Positions 41,066 through 63,412 of a DNA stretch of 64,000 nt are shown in pieces. Origin of the DNA: Candidatus Latescibacterota bacterium. GTDB lineage: Bacteria; Latescibacterota; UBA2968; UBA8231. The notes below the pieces were generated by a model. That model saw only the letters and a program-made list of their open reading frames with translations, was not told the DNA's origin and ran no database searches. Every line of letters starts with the position of its first letter. Within the stretch, counting starts at the first letter, position 1. The stretch spans positions 2,688,001 to 2,752,000 of the forward strand of contig OZ242214.1 in assembly GCA_965206595.1 (NCBI GenBank). Reading direction: 5' to 3'. The position numbers were made by a program, and so were the translations under genes.

Positions 41066-44000
41066 TCAACCCGCGGCCGCCTGCTCGTAAGCGAGGCCGA
41101 ACACCGTATCCGCCATCCAGCGCTTGAATCCGGGGTCGTCCATGAATCTCTTGAATAGCTGGGCGTCGTCCTTCATCACGGAATTCATAACCCGGACCAG
41201 CACCTTGTCGCCCTCGATACGAGTGTTCTCGCGATCGGAGTTCTGCCGGGCATTGCGGAAGGCGGTGTCCGCGGCCACCCGGGTGGGAATGGTCTCGGTG
41301 ATGAGCTGTCCTACCCGGTCGGCGTCGTCCCAGTCGGTCGCCCAGTGCTCGTTGAAGGCTCTGAGAATGTTCGACAGCCGGTCCAGCTCCGGCTCGGTTT
41401 TGCTGCCTCCGCCGGCGGTCGGCACCGGGTCGACCTCACCGTCCTCGTCCGGCAGCAGGATCTTCTGCATCGCCTGCTTCTCGACCCGGTAACTGTCGAG
41501 GTCGATGGCGTCGAGGATGCCCTTCGACAGGTCCTCTTCCTCGGGGGCCGGCAGCTTCGGGATCAGGAGGTTCAGGAAGATCGAGCGCTTCTCCCACCCG
41601 GGGTCGTTGTAGGGAAGCACGGACGACAGAAAGGCGTAGGTGCGCGTGAACCCCTTGGCGTTCCCCTTGAACCGCACCTGTCCGTCCTCGTCCAGGTCGC
41701 TCCTGTAGACGGCCACGCAGGCGTCGAGGACCGGGTCGAGCTGGTCGCGCTCGGCCCCTCCGAGGTAGCGCCGCACCAAATCGTCGACCTGCTCCTCGGA
41801 ATAGACCTGGGCGCCGTCGAGGTCCGCCTGCAGGTCGTGCAGCTTGTCGGGGTCGGTCTCGTCGGCCAGGATGGTGGCGCGGTAGTAGTCGGCGAACGCC
41901 TCACTCATGGTGTCGGCGTCGTTGAAGAAATCGAGCACGAACACGTCGTGCTTCCTGGGGTGCGCCCGGTTGAGGCGGGACAGGGTCTGCACCGCCTTGA
42001 TGCCGGACAGGGTCTTGTCGACGTACATCGTGTGCAGCAGCGGCTCGTCGTACCCGGTCTGGAACTTGTCGGCGCAGACCAGGAAGCGGTAGGGATCCTC
42101 CTGGAACTGCGCGGCGATTCTCCCGGACGGAAAGCCGTTGAGCGACGCCTCGCTGACCTTCTCCCCGCCGAACTCGTGCTCACCGGAGAAGGCGACGAGG
42201 GCCCGGTAGCGGCTCTTGCGCTCCTGCAGGTAGTCGCGGATCGCGTGGTAGTACTGGATCGCCCGCTCGATGCCGTTGGTGACCACCATCGCCCGCGCGG
42301 CGCCGCCGATCTTGTTCTGCGCCAGCACCTGGTCGTGGAAGTGGTCGACCATGATCTCGGCCTTGAGCCCGATCGCGTGGTCGCTCCCCTCGACGAAGCG
42401 GCGCAGCTTCTTCTGCGCCTTCCTGACGTCGAACTCCGGGTCCTCTTCCACGGTCTTGGCGAGCTTGTAGTAGCTGTTCACCGGCAGGTAGTGGGAGAGC
42501 ACGTCGAGGATGAACCCCTCCTGGATCGCCTGCTTCATGGTGTAGCTGTGGAAGGCGTGGTGCCTGATTGTGCCGTCGGCCTGCGGGTCCTGGGCGCCGA
42601 AGATCTCCAGGGTCTTGTTCTTGGGCGTGGCGGTGAAGGCGAAGTAGCTGGCGTTGGGCAGCAGCTTGCGCGACTCCATCAGGCGGTTGATGCGGTCCTC
42701 GAAGGTTTCCCCCTCCTCCTCTTCCCCTGCCTCGGAGAGCGCCCGCGCCATGGCCGCGCTGGTTTGGCCGCCCTGGCTGGAGTGGGCCTCGTCGATGATG
42801 ATGGCGAAGCTGCGCCCGCGCTGCTCGTTGCCGATCTCGTCGAGGATGAACGGGAACTTCTGGATCGTCGAGATGATGATCTTCTTGCCGCTCTCGATGA
42901 AGCGGCGCAGGTCGCCGGAGCGGTCGGCGTGCCCCACCGTCGCCGACACCTGGGAATACTGCCTGATCGTGTCGCTGATCTGCCGGTCGAGAAGCACCCG
43001 GTCGGTGACGACGATGATCGAGTCGAAGACCGGGGCGCCGTCCTTCGCCAGTCCGATCAGCTGGTGGGCAAGCCAGGCAATGGAGTTGCTCTTGCCGCTG
43101 CCGGCCGAGTGCTGGATCAGGTAACGACCGCCCGCGCCGCGGTCCCCTGCGTCGGCCAGCAGGCGGCGCACCACGTCGAGCTGATGGTAGCGCGGCCAGA
43201 CCTGGGTCCGCTTCCTCCTGCCCGTCTTCTCGTCCTTCGACTCCACCACCTGGGCGTAGTTCTCCAGGATGTTGGTCAGGCTCTCCCGGCTCAGCACCTC
43301 CCGCCACAGGTAGCCGGCCTTGATGCCGCTGGCGTTGGGCGGGTTGCCGGCGCCGTCGTTCCAGCCGCGGTTGAAGGGCAGGAACCAGGAGGCCTTGCCG
43401 CTGAGGTGGGTGCAGAACTGGACCTCGCTCTCGTCCACCGCGAAGTGGGCGACGCAGCGGCCCAGCTCGAACAGCTTCTCGCGCGGGTTGCGGTCGCGCT
43501 GATACTGCTGGACGGCGTCGTCGACCGTCTGCTTGGTGAGGCTGTTCTTCAGCTCGAAGGTGAAGACCGGCAGGCCGTTGACGAACAGCCCGATGTCGAG
43601 CGCCCGCTGGGTTTCGTCGCGGCTGTAGCGAAGCTGGCGGGTGACGGTGAAGCGGTTCTGCCGGAAGCGCTCCTGCGCCTCCGGGTTGTCGGCCGAGGGA
43701 GTGCCGTAGAACAGGTCGAGGTCGTGGGCCCCGTGCCGGATGCCGTGGCGCAGCACGTCGATGGTGCCGCGCTTGCTGATCTCACCCTGGAGCCGGGCCA
43801 GGAACCGGCGGCGAGTGGGGTTGGCCTCGGACAAGCCGAGTGACTCCGATGCCTCGGGCTGGGTGGCGCGCAGGAAGGCGGAAAGCTGAGCCAGGTCGAC
43901 GCAGTACTCGCGGTCGTAGTCGTGGAAGTTGCCGCCGGCCCAACCGACTCCGCCGTAGCTGGCAGGGGGCTCGCCCGCGGTGGGACCCGGGGGCGGGTCG

Positions 44001-44077
44001 CAGGGATGGCCGGCCAGCGCGCTGCAGATGAGGCGTTCGAGGCCGCGTTCGGAGGTGTCGGTGGTCCTAACGGTCAT
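41066..44077 (-). CDS. hsdR: Type I restriction endonuclease subunit R
   Basis: DIGLFVNGLPVFTFELKN, HSAGSGKS, DEAHSSQ, FTATPK, KFQTGYDEP, QTLSRLNR; GGAGGAGG RBS. Confidence 0.96.
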   Translation of the reverse strand: MTVRTTDTSERGLERLICSALAGHPCDPPPGPTAGEPPASYGGVGWAGGNFHDYDREYCVDLAQLSAFLRATQPEASESLGLSEANPTRRRFLARLQGEISKRGTIDVLRHGIRHGAHDLDLFYGTPSADNPEAQERFRQNRFTVTRQLRYSRDETQRALDIGLFVNGLPVFTFELKNSLTKQTVDDAVQQYQRDRNPREKLFELGRCVAHFAVDESEVQFCTHLSGKASWFLPFNRGWNDGAGNPPNASGIKAGYLWREVLSRESLTNILENYAQVVESKDEKTGRRKRTQVWPRYHQLDVVRRLLADAGDRGAGGRYLIQHSAGSGKSNSIAWLAHQLIGLAKDGAPVFDSIIVVTDRVLLDRQISDTIRQYSQVSATVGHADRSGDLRRFIESGKKIIISTIQKFPFILDEIGNEQRGRSFAIIIDEAHSSQGGQTSAAMARALSEAGEEEEGETFEDRINRLMESRKLLPNASYFAFTATPKNKTLEIFGAQDPQADGTIRHHAFHSYTMKQAIQEGFILDVLSHYLPVNSYYKLAKTVEEDPEFDVRKAQKKLRRFVEGSDHAIGLKAEIMVDHFHDQVLAQNKIGGAARAMVVTNGIERAIQYYHAIRDYLQERKSRYRALVAFSGEHEFGGEKVSEASLNGFPSGRIAAQFQEDPYRFLVCADKFQTGYDEPLLHTMYVDKTLSGIKAVQTLSRLNRAHPRKHDVFVLDFFNDADTMSEAFADYYRATILADETDPDKLHDLQADLDGAQVYSEEQVDDLVRRYLGGAERDQLDPVLDACVAVYRSDLDEDGQVRFKGNAKGFTRTYAFLSSVLPYNDPGWEKRSIFLNLLIPKLPAPEEEDLSKGILDAIDLDSYRVEKQAMQKILLPDEDGEVDPVPTAGGGSKTEPELDRLSNILRAFNEHWATDWDDADRVGQLITETIPTRVAADTAFRNARQNSDRENTRIEGDKVLVRVMNSVMKDDAQLFKRFMDDPGFKRWMADTVFGLAYEQAAAG

Positions 44078-44168
44078 ACCTGCCTCCTCCGACCAGACCA
44101 TTCAATCACGTGTAAGTCCGTCGTAGTCCTGCCGGTTGGACCAGTCCCTTTTAGAGTGCTGGGACTTT

Positions 44169-45257
44169 CTACATTGCAAAGCAGAAGTCGTGCTCCTGGA
44201 ACTGTGACACCTTCGCGCCGTGAAACGAGTTCGCCTGCGTTTTGTCGACTTCGGAAGTGACCCCATCGTCGACAAGCTGTACCTCGCGGCCAAGACCTCC
44301 CGTCAAGGAACGCAGCAATCCCTCTCTCAACTCGGGTTTATTCAATCGGCGCCCTCCGATCCGAATGACCATCCTCGCCCGTCCTGCCAATAGAGGTCCC
44401 AGTCCCGCCATAGACGCCTGGATGAATGTCCAGTAGTTGTCCTTGTTGCGGTGTCGATCGTCTCCCCGCCCGCGCAGCACCAACGGCTCCCCGTCGAGAA
44501 ACCACAGCCGCAGCCACTGATCCTCGCGGTAGTTGGTGGTGTCGAGGTACGGCGGCGATGTAATCACGTCGGTAACTCGACCTGTAAGGTCCGGGAACTT
44601 GCAGGCGGCCAGACGAGCGTCGGTCTGAATCACCTTCGCGGATCCCTCCGGGGGAGGGGTCCGGAACCGGTATTCGAGCATCCGTTCGAGGATCTCGAAG
44701 ACATCCCGCGGCGGCGGGGTATTTCCGAATCGCCTCCACCATCGAATCGAATAATCCGGCTTCGTGCTGATAGTGCGGGGCATGCGGTTGCTGAAGTAAT
44801 TGGGGGAGCGGTGGGACTCACCATGCAGCGCACCGAGGCACAGCGCCGCGATGAACCGGTCGTCCTTGCGGTTGCGCCAATCCAGCACCGATCGCAGGTA
44901 ACGCACTTGCAGCAGTGTGTCCCGGTGAAAGCAAAGGTCGAAGAACTCTCCCAAGCTGCCCTGCCACCCCAAGTCATCCGGCTCGTAGCATCCCTGCCTC
45001 AACTCGTTGAGTCGCGTCCTGACTTTCGAGAATCCAGGCGGGTTGCTCTTGGCTCCCGAGACGCAGACCGCCACCGGGTTCAGATCGCAGCCGGCCGCTG
45101 CCCGCCCCTGGAGCAGCGCTTGAAAAACAGTCGTTCCCCGCCCGCAGTACGGATCGAAGACAATCCCGTTGTACCGACTCGCCGCAAGATGCTTCTCGAC
45201 GAACCTCTCCGGGAACATCGCGAAGTAGGGACAGATCGAGTGGAACCGATGTCTCAT
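44169..45257 (-). CDS. DNA methyltransferase (SPPY type, probably N4-cytosine)
   Basis: PYFAMFP, VFDPYCGRGTT, DLNPVA, VITSPPY; ATGA overlap with upstream gene. Confidence 0.88.
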   Translation of the reverse strand: MRHRFHSICPYFAMFPERFVEKHLAASRYNGIVFDPYCGRGTTVFQALLQGRAAAGCDLNPVAVCVSGAKSNPPGFSKVRTRLNELRQGCYEPDDLGWQGSLGEFFDLCFHRDTLLQVRYLRSVLDWRNRKDDRFIAALCLGALHGESHRSPNYFSNRMPRTISTKPDYSIRWWRRFGNTPPPRDVFEILERMLEYRFRTPPPEGSAKVIQTDARLAACKFPDLTGRVTDVITSPPYLDTTNYREDQWLRLWFLDGEPLVLRGRGDDRHRNKDNYWTFIQASMAGLGPLLAGRARMVIRIGGRRLNKPELREGLLRSLTGGLGREVQLVDDGVTSEVDKTQANSFHGAKVSQFQEHDFCFAM

Positions 45258-46252
45258 GCGGCCGCTGCACTCCCCCGGTTGCGGTAGTCTGTGACCCATT
45301 GCGCGACTTCCTCCAGCTGATCGTACCCCTCAATCCCAACACCGGCCTCCACGAGCCGAGCGGCTTCTGCCACACGACGGGGAACACGAAGCCGGTGCAG
45401 CACGTTCCCCATCACGCGAACGTCGTCGACGAACTGATCGTCGGCCGTGGCGAACGGGACAATCATGTAGGCGATGAAATCGGTCACCGGCGGCGTCCCG
45501 AACCACCGGCCCTTGAACGCGTTCAGATGACCCTTGAGCGACTTTTCCCTCGCATTACGGCCAGTGGCGACCTGGGCGGCGGCGAAAGGAAACCCCGGTA
45601 GCCCATCAGGGTGCGGGCGGGCAGCGAAAACATCGATCTGATCGTCTTTGGGCTGCCGCGGAGCTCCGATCTGCGGCTCGACCCTTCCGTCGCCGAGCTT
45701 TACCCAAATCTGTTTCAGCTTGTTGAGAAAACCCGATCTGTCCGGTCGTGGAAAACCGAACGACCACGCTACGCCCTGAATCTCTGCGGCCAAAGCAGCG
45801 GTCGCGAAATATTGAAAGTACTCCCGCAATTTCCCCACCTCTGCACAATCGGGATGAAGACCCGAACCATCGAGCATCGGCGTGAAGGCCCGCAGGTTCG
45901 AAAGGACAAGGCTCAGGATGTACGCTGCCTGCCCGAACGATTCATCGTCCATCTCGTACCACAACAGGTTTCCGTCAGAATCAAGCCTGAAGGGATAAGC
46001 CGAGTCCAACGCGTCCTGTCGCGTCTCGATCCTGTTCACCGCGCTTGAGACAATCTCTTCCTCTCCCTCCTGCATTTCCCCTTGCAGATCGCCATGATCC
46101 TCCGCCGCCCCGAGTGTCGCAGCGTTGGCGAGTTCAGAAGTCAGGACCGTGGAGTCATCTGCAAAGAATGCGGTTAACTCCAGAAAATCGGCGGCGAGAT
46201 CGACATCGATCGACGGTCCGGAAACCGCGTCTATTGGTAGATAAAGAGGCAT
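45254..46252 (-). CDS. Hypothetical protein, putative PD-(D/E)xK-type nuclease
   Basis: KDDQIDVFAAR...AAAQVATGRN resembles a D..D..QxxxG restriction-endonuclease variant; translationally coupled on both sides. Confidence 0.55.
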   Translation of the reverse strand: MPLYLPIDAVSGPSIDVDLAADFLELTAFFADDSTVLTSELANAATLGAAEDHGDLQGEMQEGEEEIVSSAVNRIETRQDALDSAYPFRLDSDGNLLWYEMDDESFGQAAYILSLVLSNLRAFTPMLDGSGLHPDCAEVGKLREYFQYFATAALAAEIQGVAWSFGFPRPDRSGFLNKLKQIWVKLGDGRVEPQIGAPRQPKDDQIDVFAARPHPDGLPGFPFAAAQVATGRNAREKSLKGHLNAFKGRWFGTPPVTDFIAYMIVPFATADDQFVDDVRVMGNVLHRLRVPRRVAEAARLVEAGVGIEGYDQLEEVAQWVTDYRNRGSAAAA

Positions 46253-47379
46253 CACTCCCCCGCGCTGGCGTCACGGTACTTCCGGGACATGCTATGATAC
46301 AGGCTATCCGCCGTTTCCTTTACATCCTCGGCGATGTCGAGCAGGGACCTGTCCATTCCGTCGTAAGCCCGCAGTGAACCTGTTGCTTCACGGACCGCAT
46401 CCCGCGCACGCAGCAGCGACGCAGTAAACCGTTTGTCCACGGGCTCCGTGCTGGCGTGTGCCTGATCGAGATTACCCCTTTGCTCCAGGACATGTCGCCC
46501 CTCCGCGTGGGCGAGCACCTCCCCCAATCGCTTGATGTCCGGGTTCTGCGTAGTCACCACCGGCCGCGCGTCGTCCGACTTCGATCCATAGATCCAGACG
46601 AGCACCTTTCGAAGCTCATCCAGTTTCTCCCGGGGAACCTGATCCGGCTTCGGGTCGTGTCGCGACCAAGCCGGTTCGAGGCCCAGATACTCCATGTACT
46701 GAGAACGCGAAAGCGCGGTATACAGATGGGAGAAATTGAACTTGCTGGTGTGGCGATCTTCGACCTCGAACAGCCTCTCTTCTTTTGCCTGCTCCAGCAC
46801 GTAGATTGCCGACACCATCCGCTTGATCGTATCGTGCCGGTCGCCGATGGCAGTCGCGATCTGCTCGAGGTCCAACCCTTGAGATCGCCCCGACCGGTAC
46901 CATTCCGCTGCGAAACGTGCCTTGGAGTACGCGTCCCACTTCGCAGGTCCGTTGATGTGTTTATAGCCGATGAAAGCTCGGGCATGCTCCCGGCTTTCGA
47001 CGAGGTAGACCGACACTTGATCCAGGGTACTGCGCACCGCATCGTCGATCTCGGGCACCGCTATACGGGTATCTTCCGAGGACGCGATCCTGCCAACCAA
47101 GGCCGGTTCCACCAAAAGACGAAGCGTGGCGAGCCTCCGGTTTCCCTCAAGGACGATCAGCGTGTCACCTTCAGAGGCGCGCATGACGACGAGCGGCTCG
47201 ATGTCGAGGTACCCGTTGGCGGATATCGACTGAAGAAGCTCGTCGAGCTCCGCTGAGCGGTAGAGCCGCGCAATGATCGACTCGTCGGATGCATCCTCCG
47301 CCTGGCCTAGCAGCCGCGGGTTTCTACGATCCAGTCGAAGCCTCTCTACCGGCACCTTGGTGGTCGTTTCAAGTTCCAT
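46252..47379 (-). CDS. ParB/Srx N-terminal domain protein
   Basis: LRLDRRNPRL, SISANGY..EPLVV, VLEGNRRLA, HINGPAKW. Confidence 0.82.
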   Translation of the reverse strand: MELETTTKVPVERLRLDRRNPRLLGQAEDASDESIIARLYRSAELDELLQSISANGYLDIEPLVVMRASEGDTLIVLEGNRRLATLRLLVEPALVGRIASSEDTRIAVPEIDDAVRSTLDQVSVYLVESREHARAFIGYKHINGPAKWDAYSKARFAAEWYRSGRSQGLDLEQIATAIGDRHDTIKRMVSAIYVLEQAKEERLFEVEDRHTSKFNFSHLYTALSRSQYMEYLGLEPAWSRHDPKPDQVPREKLDELRKVLVWIYGSKSDDARPVVTTQNPDIKRLGEVLAHAEGRHVLEQRGNLDQAHASTEPVDKRFTASLLRARDAVREATGSLRAYDGMDRSLLDIAEDVKETADSLYHSMSRKYRDASAGE

Positions 47380-47622
47380 TGGCAACCGTCCTTCTCCATT
47401 TTCTGGCTATGACCGACACCAAGTTTCCACCCCACTACCTGACAGAGAGCATTCCCCAGTTCAACCGTCCCAGGGACCGACCATCTTGCACCGATACTGC
47501 GTTGGATGCAGTTCCGGCAAATATGCCCCATAAGCGGGGGGGCCGTATCTCTTCTACAATGACCAGGTACTCAGTCTGTGACATCTCCACCATTCGTGTC
47601 AGTTCTATTTGGCACGCCTGCC

Positions 47623-47653
47623 CGAGGCCAAGTTCGGAGGTGTCGGTGGGCAC
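47623..47653 (-). repeat. hsdR 5' remnant A
   Basis: 47623-47649 matches 44038-44064 at 25/27; reads GTG-PTDTSELGL, 8 nt after the PIN stop. Confidence 0.8.
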
Positions 47654-47661
47654 TGTGAAGC

Positions 47662-48075
47662 CTACCGCTCGGTGAACGGGTTTATAACCCGGAGGCCATC
47701 GTAGTCCCGTTCCGAATTGAGGTCTTCTGAGTAGACCGCATCGCAGCCCAGGGCGCGCGCCGCCGCAAGAATGGCACCGTCCCAAAAAGACAGCCCGAAG
47801 CGTCGGCTGATGGCGGTGGCGGCACGGAACAGACTGAGGGTGATATCCTGGACCGGAAAGTGACCGATGCCCTGGATGAATTCCAGCGCGTGTTCTTGAG
47901 TGATCGCTCCGAGGCGGGTGGAGCGCGTTGCCTGGTGATAGAACTCCTGGAGCACCTGGACGGACAACGCAAGGTCCTCCGCTTCCAGCAGCCGCTGGGC
48001 CAAACGCTGCTTGTCGGCTTCTTCAGGAGCGGGGCTGGCCGCGTATATCAGGACGTTCGTATCGACAAAGCGCAC
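47662..48075 (-). CDS. PIN-domain toxin (VapC-like)
   Basis: FVDTNVLIY, QVLQEF, SFWDGAI, YSEDL, NPF. Confidence 0.92.
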   Translation of the reverse strand: MRFVDTNVLIYAASPAPEEADKQRLAQRLLEAEDLALSVQVLQEFYHQATRSTRLGAITQEHALEFIQGIGHFPVQDITLSLFRAATAISRRFGLSFWDGAILAAARALGCDAVYSEDLNSERDYDGLRVINPFTER

Positions 48076-48080
48076 GGCAC

Positions 48081-48419
48081 TTACCCGCGCTGGCGGTCTT
48101 CGTCTTCGGCGGCCGCTGCCTGAGCTTCGGCTCTGGCTCTGGCTCGGTCGTACAGTTCTTCGCGAGGCAGGTTGTCAGCGGCCCTGAATCCGGGGGAAGT
48201 AGTGCGGATTTTCTCAATGACCTCGCGCAACATCCTGCGGCGGCGTTCGACTTCCGTCTCCACCTCCAGCCTCTTGTCCGCTGTTCGGCCGGCACCGTCC
48301 TCAACCAGGCTCTTCAGGTAGTCCCGCACGAGGGCCGATACCGAGGTGTCCAATTCCGCCGCCCGGATGCGGGCGAGCCGGTGGGTCTCTTCGTCGACGG
48401 ATACGGTGATGTTCTTCAT
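48081..48419 (-). CDS. RHH antitoxin (DUF6364/CopG-like)
   Basis: MKNITVSVDE...TSVSALVRDYL, C-terminal REELYDR. Confidence 0.85.
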   Translation of the reverse strand: MKNITVSVDEETHRLARIRAAELDTSVSALVRDYLKSLVEDGAGRTADKRLEVETEVERRRRMLREVIEKIRTTSPGFRAADNLPREELYDRARARAEAQAAAAEDEDRQRG

Positions 48420-48430
48420 GGTCACAGCCT

Positions 48431-48443
48431 CACAGTTTCTGTG
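48431..48443. promoter_or_regulatory. Candidate RHH operator
   Basis: CACAG-TTT-CTGTG palindrome just upstream of the antitoxin start. Confidence 0.5.
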
Positions 48444-48541
48444 TAGCACAACGTAGGTGCCCATAAAACGATGGGCAACACCTGCGGCGGCGAGGGTGCC
48501 TTCAGGGCTGGCGCTTTTTGGTGTTACGTTTCCTCCGCGTC

Positions 48542-48616
48542 CGGGTCGCAGGGATGGCTGGCCAGGGCAGGGCAGATGAGGCGTTACAGGCCGCGCTCGG
48601 AGGAATCGGTGGTCAT
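48542..48616 (-). pseudogene. hsdR 5' remnant B
   Basis: MTTDSSERGL*RLICPALASHPCDP vs hsdR TTDTSERGLERLICSALAGHPCDP, about 63/73 nt; its ATG overlaps the DUF1828 stop (ATGA). Confidence 0.9.
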
Positions 48617-49391
48617 GCCGCTTCGCTCAGGACCGCGGCGAATTCGTCCGGCCTTGACCAGCGCGAAACCATGGACAGAGGCTCGACCAGCCGATAATCC
48701 TCATCCGCCCAGACATCGGCGGTATCGTCAAACAACGAGACGAAGGTCAGGGCTTCCGGTCCCGCAGCGAGATGATTCAGATCGTGCCAGGCTGCCAGCA
48801 CGTGCTCGGAGACCCTGTGGGCTGCAGCGCGATTCCCAGTACTCAGCACCTGCACCAGGGAACTGCGCAGCTTGGTCCGAACGTGAAAATCGACCGTCCA
48901 GCCACGTCCCGACCTGCCGACCAGCTTTTCGCCGCGGTCGAAACCGAATTCACGCTCTTTCAAGAAATCGGCTACCTCGTCCGTAATGGACAAGCCGCCC
49001 GGGGTTCGGAAGGTGACCCATAAGTCGGACAACCCGCAGCGCCGCCTGCGCAACTCGGGTAACGACATGCGCCAACTCGTCACCGGGCCGGCATCGGGCC
49101 TGAAGCATTCCACGGTAGAACTCCGTGCCGTGTGTCAGGCACGCATCTTCGATAAACTGCTTCTGTTTCGGCGATCGGCGAAGCGCCGTCGACTGCATGC
49201 TAAGCCAGCCCGTGGTTTCCGCAAGATCGCTAACCGTCACCACGTCCCCCCGGACCTTGCAGAAAAGATCGATGTTGTCGCCGTCCGGAAAGAGGAATGG
49301 CGTGCGAATTCGCAGATATTCGCCCTGCGGAGCATATGAACGAGGCTCCGACCTTTCGCTGGATATCCTGGCACAAGTGACTGTGATTCAT
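48613..49391 (-). pseudogene. DUF1828/DUF1829-domain gene, frameshifted
   Basis: IRTPFLFPDGDNIDLF, VSDLAET and GRSG..WTVDF are spread over different frames. Confidence 0.75.
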
Positions 49392-49993
49392 CACCACAAC
49401 TCCTTCTGTGTCGCAGGCGGTTCTTCCAGTCGCCAAGGGTTTCCATGGTCAGACAGGATCCGCATGGCCTGATTTGGCATCGAGGTCGCATGGCCGATGG
49501 GCAATGCCTGTGGCCGGGGGGCGGCCATCCTGATCTGGCAGGGGCAAGTTTCGAACCTGTCCCTACGGTCGGACCCCGGAGGCGGTTGCACCGATGGCCG
49601 AATAGAGCCGTGAATGGACGCTCCAGCCCGTTCTCGCTGGTGTCGGTGGTCCGCGCTATATGCCTCGTCTCTCATCGGGATGGGAACTTCCCGCACTTCA
49701 CCGGGTTGGATTTCATCCAAAGCAATGCGGATGGCTTCCGTTCTCTGCGAGATGCGCGGCCAAGCGGTTTTCATCAAAACGACCACGGCCACCTGTCTGT
49801 TTGACATGTTCTGTTGATGTTGGATGCCTTGGTCGGTAGTGATCAAAACATCGAAGCCGACTTCTTCAGCACGGTCCAGCAAGTCTCCGTTGGACAAGCC
49901 GTCCCAACCGCGCTCCCTGGCCTCTTCGACGACATGGCCGAAAAGCCGGAGGCGCAACTGCCTGGGTGTCCCGTTATCGAACAGGATGCGCAT
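49391..49993 (-). CDS. DUF5615/PIN-like toxin; native stop near 49660 apparently lost, reads through remnant C
   Basis: MRILFDNGTP, NGDLL, LITTDQGI..QQN. Confidence 0.78.
   Translation of the reverse strand: MRILFDNGTPRQLRLRLFGHVVEEARERGWDGLSNGDLLDRAEEVGFDVLITTDQGIQHQQNMSNRQVAVVVLMKTAWPRISQRTEAIRIALDEIQPGEVREVPIPMRDEAYSADHRHQRERAGASIHGSIRPSVQPPPGSDRRDRFETCPCQIRMAAPRPQALPIGHATSMPNQAMRILSDHGNPWRLEEPPATQKELW
49560..49652 (-). pseudogene. hsdR 5' remnant C (most decayed)
   Basis: RTTDTSENGLERPFTALFGHRCNRLRGPTVG vs RTTDTSERGLERLICSALAGHPCDPPPGPTAG. Confidence 0.8.
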
Positions 49994-50216
49994 GAACGAC
50001 CTTTGCCCGGAGCTCCTGCGCCACGTGCTCCAGCACCGCCTTCACCTCCGTTTCATCCACTCCTCCGAACCACTCGATGAAGTCGTGGATGGTCGCACCC
50101 GCAGCAAGGTTCTCGAAAAGGGCATATACCGGCAAACGGGTTCCGGTAAACACCCAATTGCCACTCACCTTGCCGGGTACGCTTTCGACCGCCGGGCACT
50201 TGCTCCAGTCTGTCAT
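49974..50216 (-). CDS. DUF433 antitoxin-like protein
   Basis: PGKVSGNWVFTGTRLPV..LFENLAAG; AGGAG RBS. Confidence 0.88.
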   Translation of the reverse strand: MTDWSKCPAVESVPGKVSGNWVFTGTRLPVYALFENLAAGATIHDFIEWFGGVDETEVKAVLEHVAQELRAKVVHAHPVR

Positions 50217-50301
50217 GCTGTCAACTCCTTTTCGATGGTGTATCAATACAATACCCAAGTACCTGGCCGGTCAGAAACTTCCGGTCAAGGTGCATTAGCC
50301 T

Positions 50302-51152
50302 TCAAGCAGCGTAGTCTGCCCAGGTAGCTCTTTCGAACGCCTCCTCTACAGAGAGGAGACACTTTGGGAGTCGCTTTCTGGTGGTAATTCCGAGGAAGAG
50401 AGCTGCACGCGTGATGGCTACGTATAGGAACTTGTCGACTAGGTCGGGACGCTCTGTCTCGATCATGTCGATATCGAGGAGGAAGACACCTTCGAACTCC
50501 AAGCCCTTCAGGTAGTCGACACTGAAGACACGAACACGCTGACCATCTCCGATCTTCCCTTCAGGACACTTCTCGGCTTGGATTCCATGTTCCGACAGAC
50601 GGACAGCAATCAGATCATAGGCTTGGTCGATCTCGCGTTCATTCGGTACGCACACCGCGATGGACGGGAGTGAGTTGTCGACGGCATAGATCTCAAGGAT
50701 CCTCTCGACGATCCAATCACCATGCAGCTCCGAATCGCCCTCGTGTTGTAATAACAATGGAGCAGGCATTATCTCCTTGCTACGATACGCTGATTCTAAA
50801 GCCGGTTGTTCACCGGTCGCAGATCTCGACAGCTCCCTCGCGATCTCCAACAACCGGCTGCTCTGCCGGTAGGCCGTCTTCAGTTCTCTGACAGCCACCT
50901 CTGGAATGATGCCTTCCAGCTGATCCCAAGCCTGTAGACCACGCGGTGCAACGCGTTGCATGAGATCACCCGCCATGGACAGCGCTCCAAGGCCGGGATG
51001 GGTGAGGCCATACATGCAGCCGATTTGGTAGCTTGAGAAATCTGTTACCTCGTCGATGACGATCTGGCCGTACAGATGTTCCTTCATGCGCTCGAGTAGC
51101 CTACTTCCGGTGTTTATCTGGAGGGCCCTCTGCCCCGTTGTCAGAGCGATCC
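50302..51152 (-). pseudogene. C-terminal fragment of a UvrD-like superfamily I helicase, cut by IS630
   Basis: IDEVTDFS, GDLMQR, YRQS, KGLEFEGV, LYVAITRA; Walker A missing. Confidence 0.85.
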
Positions 51153-51154
51153 TA

Positions 51155-52301
51155 GTGTTGTGTCGCATTAATTCGTTCACAAAGTCCCTTGATCTTAGCG
51201 AGGATTGAATCTGCCGTGGCCGTCCATACGAAGGGGTGGGCCTTTTGGTTCCAGTGGTCTGTGAAGTGCTCAATGCGACGGATCAATTCCTTCACCTTCC
51301 TGAAGGAGCCTTAGTCGAATCGCCCGCCGCGTGAGGATGCCGAACCAGATCTCCACCTGGTTTAGCCAGCACGCATAGGTCGGGGTGAAATGGAGGTGGA
51401 AGCGGGGGTGTCGAGCCCGCCACTGCTTTACTTTGGCGTGTTTGTGGGTAGCGTAGTTATCGACCACCAGATGAAGGTCCAGATCCGCCGGCACCTGGGC
51501 CTCGATGTGGCGCAGAAACTGGAGAAATTCCTGATGCCGATGGCGGGGCTTGCACTGCGCTATGACCTGTCCGCTCTCGATGTTGAGCGCCGCAAACAGG
51601 GTGGTCGTGCCATGGCGTTTGTAGTCGTGGGTTACCCCTTCCACATAGCCCAGACCCAAAGGCAGCAACGGCTGGCTGCGCTCCAGGGCCTGGATCTGGC
51701 TCTTCTCGTCTACGCACAACACCAGGGCATGCTCGGGAGGATTCAGATACAGACCGACGATGTCGCGCACTTTCTCCACGAAGAACGGATCGGTGGACAG
51801 TTTGAAGGTCTTCTGCCGATGGGGCTGTAAGCCGAAGGTGCGCCAGATGCGATGCACCGTGTCCTTGGACATCCCCGAGGCGGCCGCCATGGAGCGCACC
51901 GTCCACTGGGTCTGGTCTTGTATACGACCGCCGCCACCTGCTCGTCATCAATGGAGCGGGGCGTCCCCGGACGGAGCTCGTCATACAGGCCCATGAGACC
52001 TTGCTCCACAAAGCGCTTGCGCCCCTTTCCAACGGTCGCCGGCGAGGTGGACAAGCAGCTGGCAATGGCTTGGTTGGGCCAACCGTCGGCGGCTAGCAGA
52101 ACAATCTCTGCACGACGGACCAGACCGTGGGGCTTGGAACGTGAGTTGGCTAGAGATTGCAATTGCTTTCGAGTCCGTTCACTCAATTCAAACGGAACCA
52201 ACGGGCGTCCAGATCGCATCGGGTCTCTCCTTTGGAAAAGGTCCTTGGAGAAGGATACCCACGAAGCGGATATTATGCTAGTTATTTCTGAGACTATACA
52301 C
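51155..52301 (-). mobile_element. IS630-family element with frameshifted transposase
   Basis: CTAG at both ends (TA 51153-54 and 52302-03); homologous to the 1255..2343 transposase but split over several frames. Confidence 0.9.
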
Positions 52302-52374
52302 TAGCGTCCCCCAAACCACCCAGCCGCCACTGACCTTGTTCAAATTCAGTTCGACGGCAGAGCAGGTATTCCAG

Positions 52375-52662
52375 TCATCGCAGGGTCACCTCTTCCTCGG
52401 GGTCAAAGTTGCCGAAACTCGCATCCGGGTCAGCATGGATCGTGTCGTCCAAGTCGTCTTCCACAACCGGATCCACTTCCGGCAGTTCAGGCGCCCACTC
52501 ACGCACGTCGAGCTTACCGGTGACGACATCGGCGATCAGGCGGGTGCGGTATTCGCCGAGGAGTTCGATCTGGCGGTTAGCGCGGCTAGTGGCGGTGTTC
52601 AGCCTAGCGGTACTCGCTTCTATCTGTCGCACGATTAAGCCTTGTTCATAAACCGGTGCCAC
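52375..52662 (-). pseudogene. hsdS: Type I specificity subunit C-terminal fragment
   Basis: IELLGEYRTRLIADVVTGKLDVRE; 5' part replaced by ISL3. Confidence 0.85.
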
Positions 52663-52683
52663 CGCAATCCCTCTAGAACCGAT

Positions 52684-53460
52684 GGCTCGTCAGTAGAATT
52701 CGTGGGTGAATTGTGGCTCGGGTAAATCGCCAAGCTGATGGAACGAAGCGATTTGGAGTGCCTTGAAGGTGCGAAATCCGAATGCTTTTCTCACCGTCAG
52801 ATTCCATTTCAGGTTCAAACCCTCGACCATGCCGTTGTTGAACTGCTTCCGGGCCCTGAACCAATTGAGGATGAGCTCTTGATGCCGCCGCAGCATCCTG
52901 GCGATGTCTTTCATTGGTTCGATGTTGCTTCTCATCGTACGGAAACACCAGCGCTGGAGAAACTTCTCAGCCCAAGCCGGGTAGGTGTAGTCCCAGAAGC
53001 GCTGGAAGTCCTCCTTGAGCAGGTAGGCTCGGACCGTCCGCAGGTTCATCTTCAATAGCTCCGACAGCTTCAAGCCCTGGGAGTCGCTGAGGTTCTCCTT
53101 GCGCTTCAGGAAGCACCAGCGGCTCTTGCTCAGGACCGGATCCTGGCCCTGTTCTTTGAGTCTGCGGGCCTCTTCGGCACGGACTTTGTCGAGGCCCTTG
53201 CCAAAGTGCTGCATGATGTGAAAACGGTCGAGGATATGTACCGCGGTGGGCAGCCGCTTGCTGATCACGGTGAGGTAGGCTTTCCAGATATCAGAGCAGA
53301 TGACGGTAATCTGGTCGAGGAAACGGGTCGGCTCCTGCTCGCCGGCGGCTTCCTGCTTGCGCCGGTGCTCCTGCTCCAGTTCGGTAAAGCCGTCGTTCAA
53401 GGCCTTCTTCGTCCGCTTCTCGCCCATCCACAACAGGCGGCGGCGGTGGGGGTCGATCGG
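52684..53460 (-). mobile_element. ISL3-family remnant (3' half of transposase plus end)
   Basis: ICSDIWK, LDRFHI, NGMVEGLN, AFGFR; end GGCTCGTCAG. Confidence 0.88.
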
Positions 53461-53981
53461 GGATTATATACATAATTCAGCAAGCCTGATTTAAGTAATC
53501 TCACCCGCGAATTTAAAGAAAATCTGGTATAATATTATAGAGAAAATACAGAAGAGAGGACATCCAGAGCCTCCAGTGTTTAGCCCCGAGCACGGAAGTG
53601 TGCCACCTTGACACCGTGAATCTGGGTCGATACTCGCATCATTTTCTGGATCTGCATGTCGTGGAAGCGACGAGAAATCATTCCGTCTGGTTGACGAGTT
53701 GACAAGGGGAGATAGCTGGGGATTCCTGAAGCAGGCTGATCCATGCTCAAGATCCCCCGAAAATCCTGACCCCAGGCTACCAGCAGGGGTTGTCGCCTTG
53801 GTGACCATCCTGATAGATCGGGGGCTTCATCCACAGACCCAGTTCGATTCGCGATACGGAAGCGAGGCACCAGGCAGCAGTTTTCATCTTTCTGACCATT
53901 CGAGAAGATTTCCCCGCTTTCTTCCACAGACCCAGTTCTACTCCCGATCCGGAAAACGGTTTCCTCCCGACTGACGAAAGG

Positions 53982-55007
53982 TTACCAGCAGGTCCTCTTG
54001 GATCCGGAGAGCATCCCTGCATCCGGGATATGGCCCTGTTGCAGTCCGTTGATTTCACCGGGCTTTTCCACCTTCCTGACCTTGCGGAAGGGTTCGCCCT
54101 CCTTCCACCGATGATGAGTGAAGGGTCTCGGGGGGACCTCCGTCGCCAGCAGATCCCGGTGGGTCAGCGGCTTCCCAACCATGCCGGAAACAAGGGATTT
54201 CATCTGATCCAGGGTATCCATTCCTCGAAGATTGTGCCTGCCTGTGATCTCGTTGAGGTATTGGGGCAAATACTTGGGAGATAGGTGGCGATAGATGCCG
54301 TAGGTTCCCTTGATCTGAGAATTGAACGATTCAGCACGGTTCGTTGTGGCGTCGTCCCTGGCGTATTCACCGTTTTTGTGATTGACGACTTCGTGCCTTG
54401 CCGCCCATCGGAAATCGGAGTAGGCGGGTAACTCGTCGGTAAAAAGGGTGCCCCCCCGGCGTAGGTGTTTCTTCACGAAAGCGGACAAGGTCTCTTCCGT
54501 CTTTTTGAGGATCACCTCGGCGGCTACGCTGCCGGTTTCTCGGTCGTACATTACGGCGGCGATGCTGACGCCCTTCTGCCACTGGCGACCGAATTTCTTG
54601 TTGCGGTGCCTGTTTGGATCTTCTCCTCCGATATTGACTTCGTCTACTTCACCGACATTGCAGTTGAGGCTTTCCTGTTTGGGCCAGCCTTCCCGGATGC
54701 GATGCAGCATGAACAATGCGGATTTCTCCGTTAGGCCGAGGTCAAAGGCGAGCTGCCTGCCGCTGATTCCGTAGGGCCGGGTCAGATGCAGGTGAATTCC
54801 GATAGCCCACTTCCGCAAGGGGATCTTGGAGTTGGCCAAAACCGACCCGGTGCGAACGCTGAAGTGCTTCCGGCAGTCGCCGCACCAGTAGGGCCTGTTC
54901 GAGCGGTTGCGGCAGGCCGTAATCCGGTCGCAGCATCCGCAGTGAGGGCAGTATATGCGAACAGGAAGCCCGTCTACGAGCTCCCCCATCTGTCTTCGTC
55001 GAGCCAT
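53982..55007 (-). mobile_element. IS1595-family transposase, copy 1 (N-terminus truncated/frameshifted)
   Basis: CPHC..CGDC zinc ribbon, EVDE, FTDE, VNH, TNRAESF, GKPLTH. Confidence 0.85.
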
Positions 55008-55242
55008 TTTTCTGCTCTGGGATCCTCAAGTGTTTAGCCCGGAACACGGCAACATGGTCATATGGCACCCTGAATCGGGGTCGATAGGCGCATCACTACC
55101 GGGTCTATTCGGGGGGCTACCGGGCAAGGAACCTCCAAATCAGAGAGCCCGTCGAGCCTGATCGTTCTGTGTGCAGAAAATTCGCCCCCTGCTTCAGATC
55201 GTGCAATCCGCTTGGGCGAGCAGGAGAAGGAGGAGAGGAGGC

Positions 55243-56151
55243 CTACTCCAAAGAGGCTTTGATCCGTCCCCAGGTAACGGACTCGACTGCCGTAGCCTGA
55301 GCGGGAAGCAACAGCCCATCGAGAAAGATATCCGCCATTGAATGAAACAGCCACCGGAAGGCTTCCTCGTCGTCAATGCCTTCCGGGTTCCAGGGTACTG
55401 GAGTATCTACATCAACGGAGGGATCGGAGGGATCGGAGTCGTGGATGACAGGTGCGAAACCGATGATCTGATTGGCGGACAGCTCGCTGAAAGGGATTTC
55501 AGCTATGCTGTCGCCCCATCCGTCCTGTGGCGTGACATACATCTCGACAACCCAGACAAAGGGGTTTTCTCCAGCTACACTTCCACCCGCATCTCCGTAG
55601 GGCGGGGAGGTGTGCCAGGGTTGGAGAAAGCTGTGTTCGCTGGCCAAGGTTGGGCCGCTTACTGTTCGTGAAATGGCCTCGTATTTCTGCGTTTCTCCAT
55701 AACTCGGCAATCTATCCTCAAGCGTACCGTAGCCATGGATGAATCCTTTGCCGCCGCTATGATCCGCATCGAGGTAAAGCGTAATGCTGTCATTAAGGGG
55801 AATCCATGGTATGATACCCTCTCCAGACCAATCATGGTTGTTCTCGTATTCATCGTCGATTACGATGAAGGCTGCATATATTCGGTTCAGTTCGTCGTGC
55901 CAAGCCAGCCAGATGCGGAAGTCGAGGTTGGAGGGATCAGGAGGGATATAATCATCGTTGGTCTTGAAATCCAGCAGGGTCATGTTGGGTTCGCCGATCT
56001 CATACCACTCGTCGACAAATCCATCGTGTATATTGATTTTTCTCAGCATTTCATCGGTAAGCTCGTAGAAGGGGTACAGGCGATTCCCGCTATGCGCTTC
56101 ACCCAAGCTCGCAAAAATCAGGACGATAAGAAGTCCACTAAGTACCTGCAT
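55243..56151 (-). CDS. Secreted protein with C-terminal TAVESVTWGRIKA motif (possibly CBM9/DOMON-like), copy 1
   Basis: Signal peptide MQVLSGLLIVLIFASLGEA; IHDGFVDEW, LAW, DD, DSITLYLDAD and EMY resemble CBM9/DOMON-like sandwiches. Confidence 0.75.
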   Translation of the reverse strand: MQVLSGLLIVLIFASLGEAHSGNRLYPFYELTDEMLRKINIHDGFVDEWYEIGEPNMTLLDFKTNDDYIPPDPSNLDFRIWLAWHDELNRIYAAFIVIDDEYENNHDWSGEGIIPWIPLNDSITLYLDADHSGGKGFIHGYGTLEDRLPSYGETQKYEAISRTVSGPTLASEHSFLQPWHTSPPYGDAGGSVAGENPFVWVVEMYVTPQDGWGDSIAEIPFSELSANQIIGFAPVIHDSDPSDPSVDVDTPVPWNPEGIDDEEAFRWLFHSMADIFLDGLLLPAQATAVESVTWGRIKASLE

Positions 56152-56173
56152 TGATTCCCCCTTGGGTTTCCAT

Positions 56174-57058
56174 TCAGAAGTCAACCAATCGAACCAGCCA
56201 GCCCCAAAAGGGCTCAGGACGGCTGGACAGGAAGCAATAGTTATCCCCATCCGGTGACCATGACAGCTGCAAGTCACTTTCATGGGAAGGAAGCCGGGTT
56301 ACCTTCGTTCCCTTCACGTAGACGCCTCCTATCCCATCTCGGTTGGAGAGAAATGCAACCTCTCCCTTTGAAGTCCAAACCGGATTCCAGTCTTTCGCGA
56401 AATGGTTTGTCATTCTTGTAATCGTCCCATCTAAATCTGCAATACAGATTTCCGGGTTACCGTAGCGGATGCACTCGAAGGCAATTCGAGTGCCTTCGGG
56501 CGACCACGCAGGACGAACATCCGGGCTGTCATGGCGGGTGAGGTTGCGGAGACGGCCTTCTTGGTCCGCAAGATAGATTTCCATGTTGCTGTCTCGGTAG
56601 GTTGTAAAAGCAAGTAGGCCGTTCTTTGACCAAGCTGGAAGAATTCCGTCCTGAATGATTTTCTTAATCTGGCCATCCTCAAGGTTCAAACTGAAGATAT
56701 CGTACGACTCTGCCTCCTCCGCGCCACCCCCAAATGCGATCTCAGTGCTGTTGGGATGCCAGGACATGCCAAGGGTGAAGGTCAGTGGTGATGGCATAGG
56801 AATCGTTTTCAACCGGTCCCCATCAGTTGAGATAAGTTGAAATGCGTTATCCTGTCGATCATGGTAGAGGATGTGTTGGCCATCTGGAGACCAAATGGGG
56901 TTAAAAGCCCCAGAATCAGACAGTCGCCGAACCTGATCGTTAATTTTGCAATAAACACTCCCGCTTTCGTGCCCATCCACAGGAGATAGCAAGAGGAGCA
57001 AGAGAGGCCCTATTCTAACGAAGCCCTGTTTAATTCCCATGGATTCGGAGAGGCCCAC
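56174..57058 (-). CDS. Secreted TolB-like PD40-repeat beta-propeller protein
   Basis: PIWSPDG, PAWSKNG, PAWSPEG, SWSPDG repeats; LLLLLS signal; start could be ~57040. Confidence 0.85.
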   Translation of the reverse strand: MGLSESMGIKQGFVRIGPLLLLLLSPVDGHESGSVYCKINDQVRRLSDSGAFNPIWSPDGQHILYHDRQDNAFQLISTDGDRLKTIPMPSPLTFTLGMSWHPNSTEIAFGGGAEEAESYDIFSLNLEDGQIKKIIQDGILPAWSKNGLLAFTTYRDSNMEIYLADQEGRLRNLTRHDSPDVRPAWSPEGTRIAFECIRYGNPEICIADLDGTITRMTNHFAKDWNPVWTSKGEVAFLSNRDGIGGVYVKGTKVTRLPSHESDLQLSWSPDGDNYCFLSSRPEPFWGWLVRLVDF

Positions 57059-63405: not shown

Positions 63406-63412
63406 GGCTGGC

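Follow-up and report, generated by a model that had tools for sequence, protein, structure and literature searches.

Insertion with long target duplication was reportedly first described by Nobusato et al. in 2000, and classic homology-facilitated illegitimate recombination (HFIR) usually deletes the recipient DNA between its homologous anchor and the join. According to Furuta, Abe and Kobayashi (2010; PMC2853133), the former places direct target duplications of variable length (>30 bp) around a unit without mobility genes by an unknown mechanism, the empty target being found in a related genome. In HFIR, as outlined in PMC3240628, a single homologous anchor and one illegitimate end add foreign DNA beside a conserved gene. 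In type I restriction-modification loci, toxin–antitoxin and defence genes have been found between hsdS and hsdR (Payne et al. 2024, preprint 10.1101/2024.01.29.577857; PMC12255303), a site named as a potential recombination hotspot in the RptR/DarTG2 paper (PMC12255303). In the text searched, neither paper mentions remnants, truncation or recombination scars; the cargo analyzed here is marked by hsdR scars.

The window analyzed is a stretch of 64,000 nt from a 7.05-Mb genome, which we compared with related loci in other genomes, all metagenome-assembled (MAGs); the array that it contains is best read as insertion with long target duplication in stacked form. All features given below by window coordinates lie on the minus strand. 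The intact hsdR, the live anchor gene (41066..44077; ATG at 44077), encodes 1003 aa with Pfam HSDR_N, SWI2_SNF2, ResIII and T1R_D3 domains and a PADLOC REase_I match, and is 97% identical to its orthologue in the congener G001. It is separated by 8.3 kb from a 3′ fragment of hsdS (hsdS′, 52375..52668), found by tblastn and PADLOC (Specificity_I positions 387–442 of 448), that represents the conserved C-terminal portion of an HsdS. The 5′ part of hsdS (L025:14801-16006; Specificity_I positions 79–381) is separated from hsdS′ by ~26 kb of IS-rich DNA, and the split hsdS is therefore probably inactive. With hsdM at L026:1527-4124 (84% identity to G001 hsdM), the locus is nevertheless complete in genes. 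Adjacent to hsdS′ lies an IS630-family transposase in two frames (51270..52219; DDE_3 and HTH_29/23), which appears to be a later insertion, as G001 lacks it. It is followed by a C-terminal fragment of a UvrD-like helicase (50302..51273; UvrD_C_2, E = 3.3e-8), and a 93%-identical UvrD-like stretch occupies the same hsdS–hsdR interval in G111 (L163).

Three leftover hsdR starts at cassette joins had been predicted, and their presence was confirmed by blastn with the 5′ 211 nt of hsdR against the whole 7.05-Mb genome, tblastn with HsdR aa 1–70 against the genome and nhmmer with a profile built from 38 live hsdR 5′ ends. The three remnants lie upstream of the live hsdR in the same orientation, each preceded by a block of cargo. 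Stub A (47623..47653) covers ~31–33 nt from the start codon (blastn 25/27 at 47623-47649, E = 0.005; nhmmer E = 1e-7) and is most similar (29/31) to PIN-adjacent hsdR alleles. It begins after an 8-nt spacer from the PIN stop codon, and the same spacer is present at 10 of 11 PIN–hsdR junctions. Stub B (48542..48616; 75 nt; blastn 63/73 at 48542-48614, E = 2e-11; tblastn E = 1.5e-8; nhmmer E = 1.7e-14) contains an in-frame stop at codon 11, and its start shares an ATGA overlap with the DUF1828 stop; this overlap and the 8-nt spacing of stub A were both as claimed. Stub C (~49555..49655; at least 100 nt, with indels) was detected by tblastn (20/32 aa at 49653-49561, E = 2.9e-5) and nhmmer (E = 2.8e-7) and showed only a 14-nt exact seed in blastn. 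It derives from another hsdR 5′ allele type and matches best (81/111) to an orphan fragment found at 3.148 Mb in the genome. The remaining genome-wide blastn matches to the hsdR 5′ end were chance-level 14–19-mers, and the sole tblastn match beyond stubs B and C was the orphan fragment (genome position 3,148,686). Since these searches confine the stubs to the locus, the possibility that they belong to a dispersed genome-wide repeat was rejected. The stubs themselves are non-functional scars.

Nor are the stubs an assembly artefact, because the congeneric genome G001 carries the same array, at 90–95% identity and without the IS elements. In addition, unitigs of run X1 cover all three stubs with zero mismatches and contigs from two further studies cross the stub A junction, and an origin as assembly chimeras was rejected on these grounds.

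The cassettes contain no transposase or integrase match, the IS630 copy sitting outside them. On the hsdS′ side, a DUF433 gene, encoding a putative antitoxin partner (49974..50216; PF04255, E = 6.4e-11), is followed by a DUF5615 (PIN-like) gene (49680..49993; PF18480, E = 2.3e-4, below cut-off). Comparison of its 3′ end with those of 16 copies revealed that a 2-nt insertion has removed the DUF5615 stop, and the frame continues to 49391. Behind stub C lies a remnant of the upstream region of a ribbon-helix-helix (RHH) cassette (49492..49525), assigned by synteny, as the window's genome and G001 align through it to G077, G111, G057, G066 and G067 and then diverge into DUF1828; on its own, the remnant matches at 17/20, below significance. 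The DUF1828/PDC-M24B gene (48613..49491; PADLOC PDC-M24B, E = 1.5e-48 for its 3′ portion) is broken by frameshifts, and the intact G001 DUF1828 protein (292 aa, PF08861) hit it in three frames by tblastn. The RHH–PIN cassette has a conserved upstream region of ~95 nt with an inverted repeat (48420..48512), its homology beginning ~95 nt before the ATG in all contexts (9 copies aligned from 7 genomes). It comprises an RHH antitoxin-like gene (48081..48419; DUF6364 and FitA-like_RHH matches weak, below cut-off) and a gene for a PIN-domain (VapC-like) putative toxin (47662..48075; PF01850, E = 2.5e-13; TIGR00028, E = 3e-6, below cut-off). This is a VapBC-type layout, with a small putative DNA-binding antitoxin gene before the PIN gene; the RHH gene is paired with PIN in every relative carrying it, and the pair is kept in 11 of 75 loci.

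The presumed newest cassette is preceded by hicB′ (47506..47620; blastn 80–89%), the frameshifted and truncated 5′ end of a gene for a hicB-like antitoxin plus the region upstream of it; hicB′ is single-copy in the genome, and its intact matches are 73–75-aa hicB-like genes (PF15919) in G012, G020, G052 and G019. The first gene of the cassette (46252..47385) encodes a PD-Lambda-5_A-like protein (PADLOC PD-Lambda-5_A, E = 1.9e-22; PDC-M38A, E = 6e-18), its middle gene (45254..46255) a 333-aa protein kept beside its neighbours in G001, G019, L188 and L229, and its third gene (44169..45299) an N6/N4 DNA methyltransferase (MTase; PF01555, E = 4.8e-11; PADLOC MTase_II, E = 1.7e-26). Two cargo genes match PDC-M24B and PDC-M38A, PADLOC candidate families that are reported to have come from the embedded-gene screen of Payne et al. 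Domain searches bore out the labels given in the original prediction to DUF433, DUF5615, PIN, the weak RHH, the UvrD_C fragment and the N6_N4 MTase, and that of DUF1828 was upheld through its intact G001 copy. The 'ParB' label corresponded only to a sub-threshold ParB_N match (E = 0.031) in the PD-Lambda-5_A-like protein, and the middle gene, labelled 'nuclease-like', had no Pfam, NCBIfam or PADLOC match. The hsdR stubs proved real, but they are not the only scars; hicB′, RHH′, DUF433′, PIN′ and RHH-upstream-region remnants were also found.

When each of the four cargo types was sought directly upstream of an intact hsdR, all were found so in other genomes. Among 75 related loci, live hsdR was adjoined by PIN in 11, by DUF5615 in 8 and by DUF1828, the MTase cassette or hicB in 2 each, and hsdS adjoined hsdR without cargo in 9. 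Intact DUF1828 adjoins live hsdR in G121b, G100, L164 and L231, and the N6/N4 MTase does so in G001 and L188 too. Window positions 48502-47623 are colinear with the RHH–PIN–hsdR 5′ region of G012, G020 and G052, and 48488-47634 with that of G057; stub A itself lines up colinearly with the join of PIN and hsdR in these four genomes. Stubs were present in 17 of 39 loci in a first sample (9 of 31 when loci chosen for stubs are left out) and in 20 of the 75, about a quarter, in the second, the two samples overlapping and related genomes within the counts being kin rather than independent. A strict strand bias was observed, extra copies occurring on the hsdR strand alone, as matches to the hsdR 5′ profile numbered 69 plus and 0 minus in 655,580 nt, and 106 plus and 0 minus in the 1,630,254 nt of the second sample.

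Break points were variable. Stub ends in the nhmmer profile spanned positions 63 to 153, ~26–116 nt past the ATG, and longer copies of 138, 499, 748 and 882 nt also occurred. The 34 distinct stubs fell into 23 junction classes, 19 of which are represented among the 30 upstream stubs; all 30 retain the start and lack the 3′ side (profile start 3–54). The first 60 nt of hsdR were not more conserved than the remainder (rank 47 of 50 windows), and because of this only survivorship of short repeats would account for the concentration of breaks within the first ~120 nt. At junction A, two parents agree at 7/8 positions over a short patch in which the window is 3–4 nt shorter and the crossover cannot be placed; at junction B, the 43 nt after the stub had no match in the other loci fetched.

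We consider it probable that the hsdS′–hsdR interval preserves, layer by layer, a series of one-ended recombination events for which hsdR served as the anchor. Serial hsdR-anchored stacking, the core of the original prediction, is largely supported, but its polarity has exceptions, other remnants accompany the stubs, and we infer, rather than observe, the use of the hsdR anchor, the recombination pathway, including HFIR as its mechanism, and the order of events. In each event, [cargo–hsdR] DNA from another type I locus would pair with the resident hsdR; at the DNA level, hsdR is on average ~80% identical over its length to 51 homologues, and the upstream sequence differs between loci. The other end would join illegitimately within the resident hsdR. 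The resident start, its old upstream neighbour still attached, would remain as a stub, followed by the newly arrived cargo and then by an entire hsdR. The route may have been HFIR or Campbell-type integration of a circularised fragment, and the outcome would be insertion with long target duplication, stacked. Like HFIR, the proposed events would have one anchor, one illegitimate end and no dedicated enzyme; unlike in classic HFIR, the join would lie within the anchor gene, and a duplication would therefore result. As in insertion with long target duplication, the repeats exceed 30 bp (B, 75 nt; C, at least 100 nt; A borderline at 31 nt), uninterrupted targets exist (PIN–hsdR in G012, G020, G052 and G057; DUF1828–hsdR in G121b and G100), and the inserts, cassettes of 0.9–3.5 kb against a criterion of <20 kb, carry no mobility gene. 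In contrast to the description by Furuta et al., the units here are cassettes of toxin–antitoxin and accessory defence genes, not entire restriction-modification systems, the target is always the hsdR start, with one repeat copy forming part of the live gene, and as many as three events are stacked at a single site, with ordered decaying copies. In the proposed order, DUF433–DUF5615 would have stood beside hsdR until RHH–PIN arrived, leaving stub C; DUF1828 would then have arrived with a join inside the RHH upstream region, RHH–PIN would have come again, leaving stub B, and hicB′–PD-Lambda-5A-like–unknown–MTase would have left stub A. IS elements, frameshifts and allelic patches would have come afterwards. 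On this reading, the stubs record one-after-another gene addition without a dedicated integration enzyme.

A rather unlikely alternative is that the cassettes are ready-made units bounded by a stub at one end and an hsdR start at the other. RecA-dependent homologous recombination, by double crossover or by pop-out of a circle that later re-enters, would then be the main route by which they spread and stack, with the stub as a short homology arm and illegitimate joins as rare founding events. The DUF5615–stub C block shared by 7 genomes from two families, the identical left boundary of the RHH cassette in 9 copies, the five genes of G019 flanked by a hicB–hsdR 5′ direct repeat and the hsdR homologues of 71–97% identity in MAGs labelled as many phyla all agree with it, and the stub–hicB neighbourhood recurring in G118, G123 and the window's genome may reflect such units. 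It is also consistent with the mosaic identity of the array (a 500-nt patch within RHH–PIN divergent from G001; a 90% island relative to G012), which homologous recombination has since reshuffled. However, the 19 junction classes would require many founding events, arms of 26–100 nt at 73–93% identity are poor RecA substrates, and L204 has DUF5615–stub–DUF1828 with a junction unlike the window's, implying that this neighbourhood arose twice. A broader reading, also doubtful in our view, is that the hsdR start is a portable homology arm and that cargo plus a short stub forms an integrase-free cassette, looping out and re-entering related type I loci by host recombination; if so, unrelated bacteria of a community would share an integron-like exchange of toxin–antitoxin and defence genes, and toxin–antitoxin cassettes would guard the array against deletion. 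We regard it as improbable that the stubs are residues of complete redundant hsdR copies, created by tandem whole-locus fusion and later trimmed, since random deletions would not leave the start and remove the 3′ side in 30 of 30 upstream stubs, and each of the window's three stubs would need a deletion ending right before the next cassette. Such a history is nevertheless suggested by L170, whose old hsdR copy (5′ 138 nt joined to 3′ 370 nt) was once complete and internally deleted later, by the extra full-length 5′ regions downstream in L164 and L177, and by partial copies of 499–882 nt in Spirochaetia-labelled MAGs.

Selective retention of the stubs, which would serve the downstream cassettes as leaders or coupling signals, would fit the preserved start codon and spacing (the ATGA of stub B, the 8 nt before stub A) and the recognisability of stub C across two families, but it is very improbable given the early stop in stub B, the indels in stub C, the rise of divergence with position, the 85.7% identity to G057 (a figure for stub C and its neighbouring genes together) and the 55 of 75 related loci without stubs. 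The array resembles an integron in its co-oriented cassettes added beside a fixed point, oldest furthest, and in its toxin–antitoxin cassettes, but it has no IntI, no attC fold and no fixed crossover point; the lack of IntI and attC had been correctly predicted, and the likeness is an analogy only. A site-specific integron-like system, with the hsdR start as attachment site and a recombinase in trans, could explain the co-oriented repeats between cassettes and four stubs that break after the same 12 codons (A of the window, B of G001, that of G052 and one G057 copy). Against it, break points lie anywhere between 26 and 882 nt, and no tyrosine recombinase lies within ~700 kb of the locus (2.73 Mb), each of the genome's 13 PF00589 matches being >700 kb away and the nearest at 1.84 and 3.46 Mb. 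The genome has no PF00239 (serine recombinase) match, 44–53 kb of the window contains no recombinase ORF other than the transposase, and, as ssDNA of either strand, neither the three stubs nor the live start fold better than shuffles (z −0.84 to +0.97). The site-specific reading is already close to refuted, and we give it almost no chance.

With respect to the serial recombination that we favour, divergence from the best of 118 live alleles increased from A (29/31) through B (64/74) to C (81/111), in line with the predicted decay with distance, but part of the low identity of stub C may be allelic, reflecting a different hsdR 5′ type. The predicted polar, time-ordered array likewise held for decay and sharing but not everywhere; besides L170, a stub lies downstream of hsdR in three loci (L175, L188 and L195), and in L188 RHH–PIN–stub is positioned after the live hsdR. 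The breadth of sharing fits the claimed age order, as stub C is common to 7 genomes (the window's and six others) of two families, and the positions of stubs A and B are shared within the genus only.

The array lies on the minus strand of the window, which belongs to one contig of 7.05 Mb. In transcriptional order, an hsdS 3′ fragment (52375-52668), an IS630-family transposase (51270-52219), and a UvrD-like helicase fragment (50302-51273) are followed by DUF433 (49974-50216) and DUF5615 (49680-49993). Next come stub C (about 49555-49655), 34 nt left over from the region upstream of RHH (49492-49525), the DUF1828/PDC-M24B gene, which is frameshifted (48613-49491), and stub B (48542-48616). The sequence upstream of RHH (48420-48512), RHH (48081-48419), PIN (47662-48075), and stub A (47623-47653) lead into a hicB-like 5′ remnant (47506-47620), a PD-Lambda-5_A-like gene (46252-47385), a 333-aa gene with no assigned family (45254-46255), an N6/N4 methyltransferase gene (44169-45299), and the intact hsdR (41066-44077). 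Judged from sequence, the cargo would comprise two toxin-antitoxin-like pairs (RHH-PIN and DUF433-DUF5615), the broken DUF1828/PDC-M24B gene, and the three-gene PD-Lambda-5_A-like/no-family/methyltransferase block; the stubs themselves are best read as scars. At 49655-49680, a 2-nt insertion (CATATAG for CATAG) abolishes the DUF5615 stop, and the frame extends 200 aa through stub C. The RHH-upstream remnant behind stub C is retained only because synteny backs it, as the pairwise alignment (17/20) did not outscore the top one among 500 shuffles. An hsdS 3′ tail was considered for the 43 nt that follow stub B and was dropped, as they were unmatched in other loci. A scan for promoters and terminators was uninformative (0 promoter-like sites; 5 terminator-like sites vs 7.2 expected).

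Two alternative origins of the stubs, a dispersed repeat and an assembly chimera, were weighed against genome-wide searches and independent assemblies. When the first 211 nt of hsdR were compared with the whole genome using blastn, stub B (63/73, E=2e-11) and stub A (25/27, E=0.005) were recovered, stub C gave only a 14-nt seed, and the remaining matches were at chance level. A genome-wide tblastn search with HsdR residues 1-70 retrieved stub B (E=1.5e-8), stub C (E=2.9e-5), and a single orphan DUF5615-hsdR 5′ fragment at 3.148 Mb of the genome. As only the locus and this one fragment were matched, a motif repeated throughout the genome was ruled out; the hicB-like remnant was likewise single-copy. 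In the orphan (genome positions 3,148,346-3,148,860), DUF5615 is 60% identical and is followed after 29 nt by a ~175-nt hsdR 5′ fragment of the allele type from which stub C derives. The same array is present in the congener G001 (hsdR 97% identical, flanks 90-95%), which has an intact hsdS, no IS630 copy, and an intact DUF1828 gene of 292 aa. Zero-mismatch unitigs of sequencing run X1, which may be the source sample of the genome, cover 47194-47667, 48422-48709, and 48885-49994, and the stub A junction is bridged by contigs of X5 and X8, runs from other studies. In addition, a false join made at this conserved start would lead on into the hsdR body and not into cargo, which argues against misassembly; together with the G001 array and the spanning contigs, this ruled out a chimera. 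One X5 contig joins 44066 to 47672, a form without the three-gene cassette; one of its sides measures only 23 nt, and it was left out of the evidence.

We then counted hsdR starts in related loci with an nhmmer profile of 38 live hsdR 5′ ends (-45 to +165; the ATG falls near profile position 37). For sample 1, 39 hsdR homologues of the same class were taken with 16 kb of upstream sequence each; its second batch included nine loci picked for an already visible second match, and the short contig G099 was dropped. Across its 40 loci (655,580 nt), 69 profile matches fell on the hsdR strand vs 0 on the opposite strand (E<=1), 26 of them being stubs (E<0.01). At least one stub was present in 17/39 loci having a live gene, and in 9/31 after those picked for a second match were left out. 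Sample 2, which overlaps sample 1 in genomes, consisted of 79 loci (1,630,254 nt) from a species-representative collection, 75 of which hold an hsdR start; 106 plus-strand vs 0 minus-strand matches were found, and 20/75 loci had an extra upstream copy, that of L183 being an internal piece and not a start. Three stubs occurred only in the window and G001, and two in G118 and L194.

HsdR was 71-97% identical at the protein level across the metagenome-assembled genomes (MAGs) of sample 2 (L155-L233). Their record titles name Candidatus Latescibacterota, the group of the window, as well as Spirochaetia, Gamma- and Alphaproteobacteria, and Acidobacteria; others of these MAGs are titled Entotheonella, Poribacteria, Chloroflexota, and Bacteroidetes. 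Such identity under many phylum labels points to wide horizontal transfer of the type I locus. In X1, the summed contig depth was 2285 over the hsdR start (44000-44210) vs about 30-200 over the cargo, and many contigs agree up to 44066 and diverge beyond; many community members seem to share the hsdR start in differing upstream contexts.

Each of the four cassettes stands immediately upstream of an intact hsdR in some other locus, as the original prediction had anticipated. In sample 2, the gene adjoining live hsdR was PIN in 11/75 loci (10 of these with the 8-nt spacer of stub A), RHH alone in 11, DUF5615 in eight, DUF433 in five, and the methyltransferase cassette, hicB, or DUF1828 in two each; hsdS without cargo adjoined it in nine, and other or unidentified genes in 25. 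DUF1828 and an intact 1005-aa hsdR frame share one base (TGATG) in the second G121 locus and in G100. Furthermore, window positions 48502-47623 align unbroken to the RHH-PIN-hsdR 5′ region of G012, G020, and G052, and 48488-47634 to that of G057, indicating that stub A is an old PIN/hsdR junction.

Every upstream stub retained the start (profile start 3-54), and the stub ends were spread over profile positions 63 to 153. Longer partial copies were detected in Spirochaetia-labelled MAGs: 882 nt (92.9%) in L164, where DUF1828 and the live gene come next, 748 nt (90.5%) in L175, and 499 nt (88.8%) in L179. When junctions were classed by the 70 nt after the stub, with loci fetched twice counted once, 34 stubs fell into 23 classes; setting aside three that are located downstream of hsdR, as well as the short-scored 5′ end of the G044b hsdR copy, 30 upstream stubs in 19 classes remained. 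Consistent with the proposed integrase-free character of the array, there was no tyrosine recombinase within ~700 kb of the locus, serine recombinases were missing from the whole genome, and single-strand folds were no better than those of shuffles. Since the junction classes are many and neither a nearby recombinase nor a folded site was found, one fixed crossover site is disfavoured; unusual conservation of the hsdR start, as expected of a hotspot, was not found either. We consider it fairly probable that the array arose through serial one-ended recombination anchored in hsdR, as a stacked form of "insertion with long target duplication". This rearrangement class is known for R-M units, its mechanism not being established in the available text of PMC2853133, and homology-facilitated illegitimate recombination is a known process in that of PMC3240628. 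The many short stubs may reflect survivorship, in which long repeats would be lost by homologous recombination along with the new cargo.

As originally noted, decay increased with distance from the live gene: the best matches among 118 live 5′ ends were 29/31 for stub A, which is too short to carry much weight, 64/74 for B, and 81/111 for C. The breadth of sharing narrows in line with this order. Stub C was found in two families, stub A only in this genome and G001, and the B position also only in these two, the G001 copy differing past ~35 nt and forming its own junction class. The apparent age of the C block could be inflated by horizontal transfer. The junction of the DUF5615 stop with stub C is common to this genome, G001, G111, G077, G057, G066, and G067, and in the latter five it continues with RHH, preceded by its upstream region. 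Because this genome and G001 leave the RHH upstream region after ~35 nt and switch to DUF1828, RHH-PIN would formerly have stood behind stub C, been overwritten by DUF1828-hsdR, and later been regained at stub B. The sequence behind stub A is the 5′ part of a hicB-like gene, of which G012, G020, G052, and G019 have intact copies.

The two gradients agree with the proposed polar, time-ordered array. Exceptions are L170, whose older copy retains both ends and has lost the middle, and three loci where a stub occurs downstream of hsdR, among them L188 (cassette-hsdR-RHH-PIN-stub). Nor is hsdR alone in leaving remnants, which a simple polar model does not accommodate: a DUF433 remnant precedes RHH in G012 and G020, and an RHH remnant follows hsdS in G052, G057, and G019. 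In L077, L078, L087, L091, and L092 (G118, G121, G110, G111, and G119, respectively), PIN is cut to its first seven codons and a stop just upstream of hsdR with RHH kept; the toxin was repeatedly lost in these five loci and the antitoxin left. Window positions 47814-48616, a stretch that begins at stub B and ends within the first half of PIN, are ~65-69% identical to L057, the G001 locus, or unalignable, vs 90-95% on both sides, and this patch looks like a later allelic replacement or exchange. G118 and G123 have the stub/hicB neighbourhood as well, their stub being longer, and the DUF5615/stub/DUF1828 order recurs in L204 at a different junction. Since neighbourhoods recur, partly with different junctions, de novo joins and the spread of ready-made units both seem to occur.

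Accessory genes embedded between hsdS and hsdR are already known, according to the available text of PMC12255303, and the searched text of the preprint by Payne et al. (2024; 10.1101/2024.01.29.577857) mentions neither remnants nor recombination. Within the limited set of literature searched, we found no published description of hsdR stub arrays, of a serial, ordered stack built up where a single live gene begins, or of its frequency. Type I R-M loci are known to harbour accessory defence and toxin-antitoxin genes, whose route of entry has been a gap. The stubs would be direct footprints of this route: they read as stepwise entry of single cassettes at the start of hsdR, without a recombinase and frequent enough to be visible in about a quarter of the related loci. 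Within a locus, they also supply the relative order in time of its acquisitions, and scans for duplicated gene starts could aid the discovery of newly acquired defence cargo in other operons.

The window ends before it reaches hsdM and the 5′ part of hsdS, and the two hsdS pieces, matching positions 79-381 and 387-442 of one PADLOC model, are parted by ~26 kb of IS-rich DNA (window 52690-64000 plus positions 1-14800 of the adjoining sequence L025; genome 2,740,690-2,766,800). This split in hsdS probably leaves the genome with an inactive type I system. The G001 hsdS is free of the insert and its operon is contiguous, with HsdM 84% identical between the two genomes. The insert contains an ISL3 fragment, a SIR2-like gene, an amidohydrolase gene, and several IS1595-family copies that are nearly identical and each precede a repeated ~346-aa ORF. 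HsdM (865 aa; positions 1527-4124 of L026, also beyond the window end) carries ~160 C-terminal residues past the PADLOC MTase_I model that are conserved in G001. Between hsdM and hsdS (L025, 16235-19000), an IetS-like subtilase (PADLOC IetS, 1043 bits) and its 331-aa neighbour, both missing from G001, form a second embedded system in the operon of this genome.
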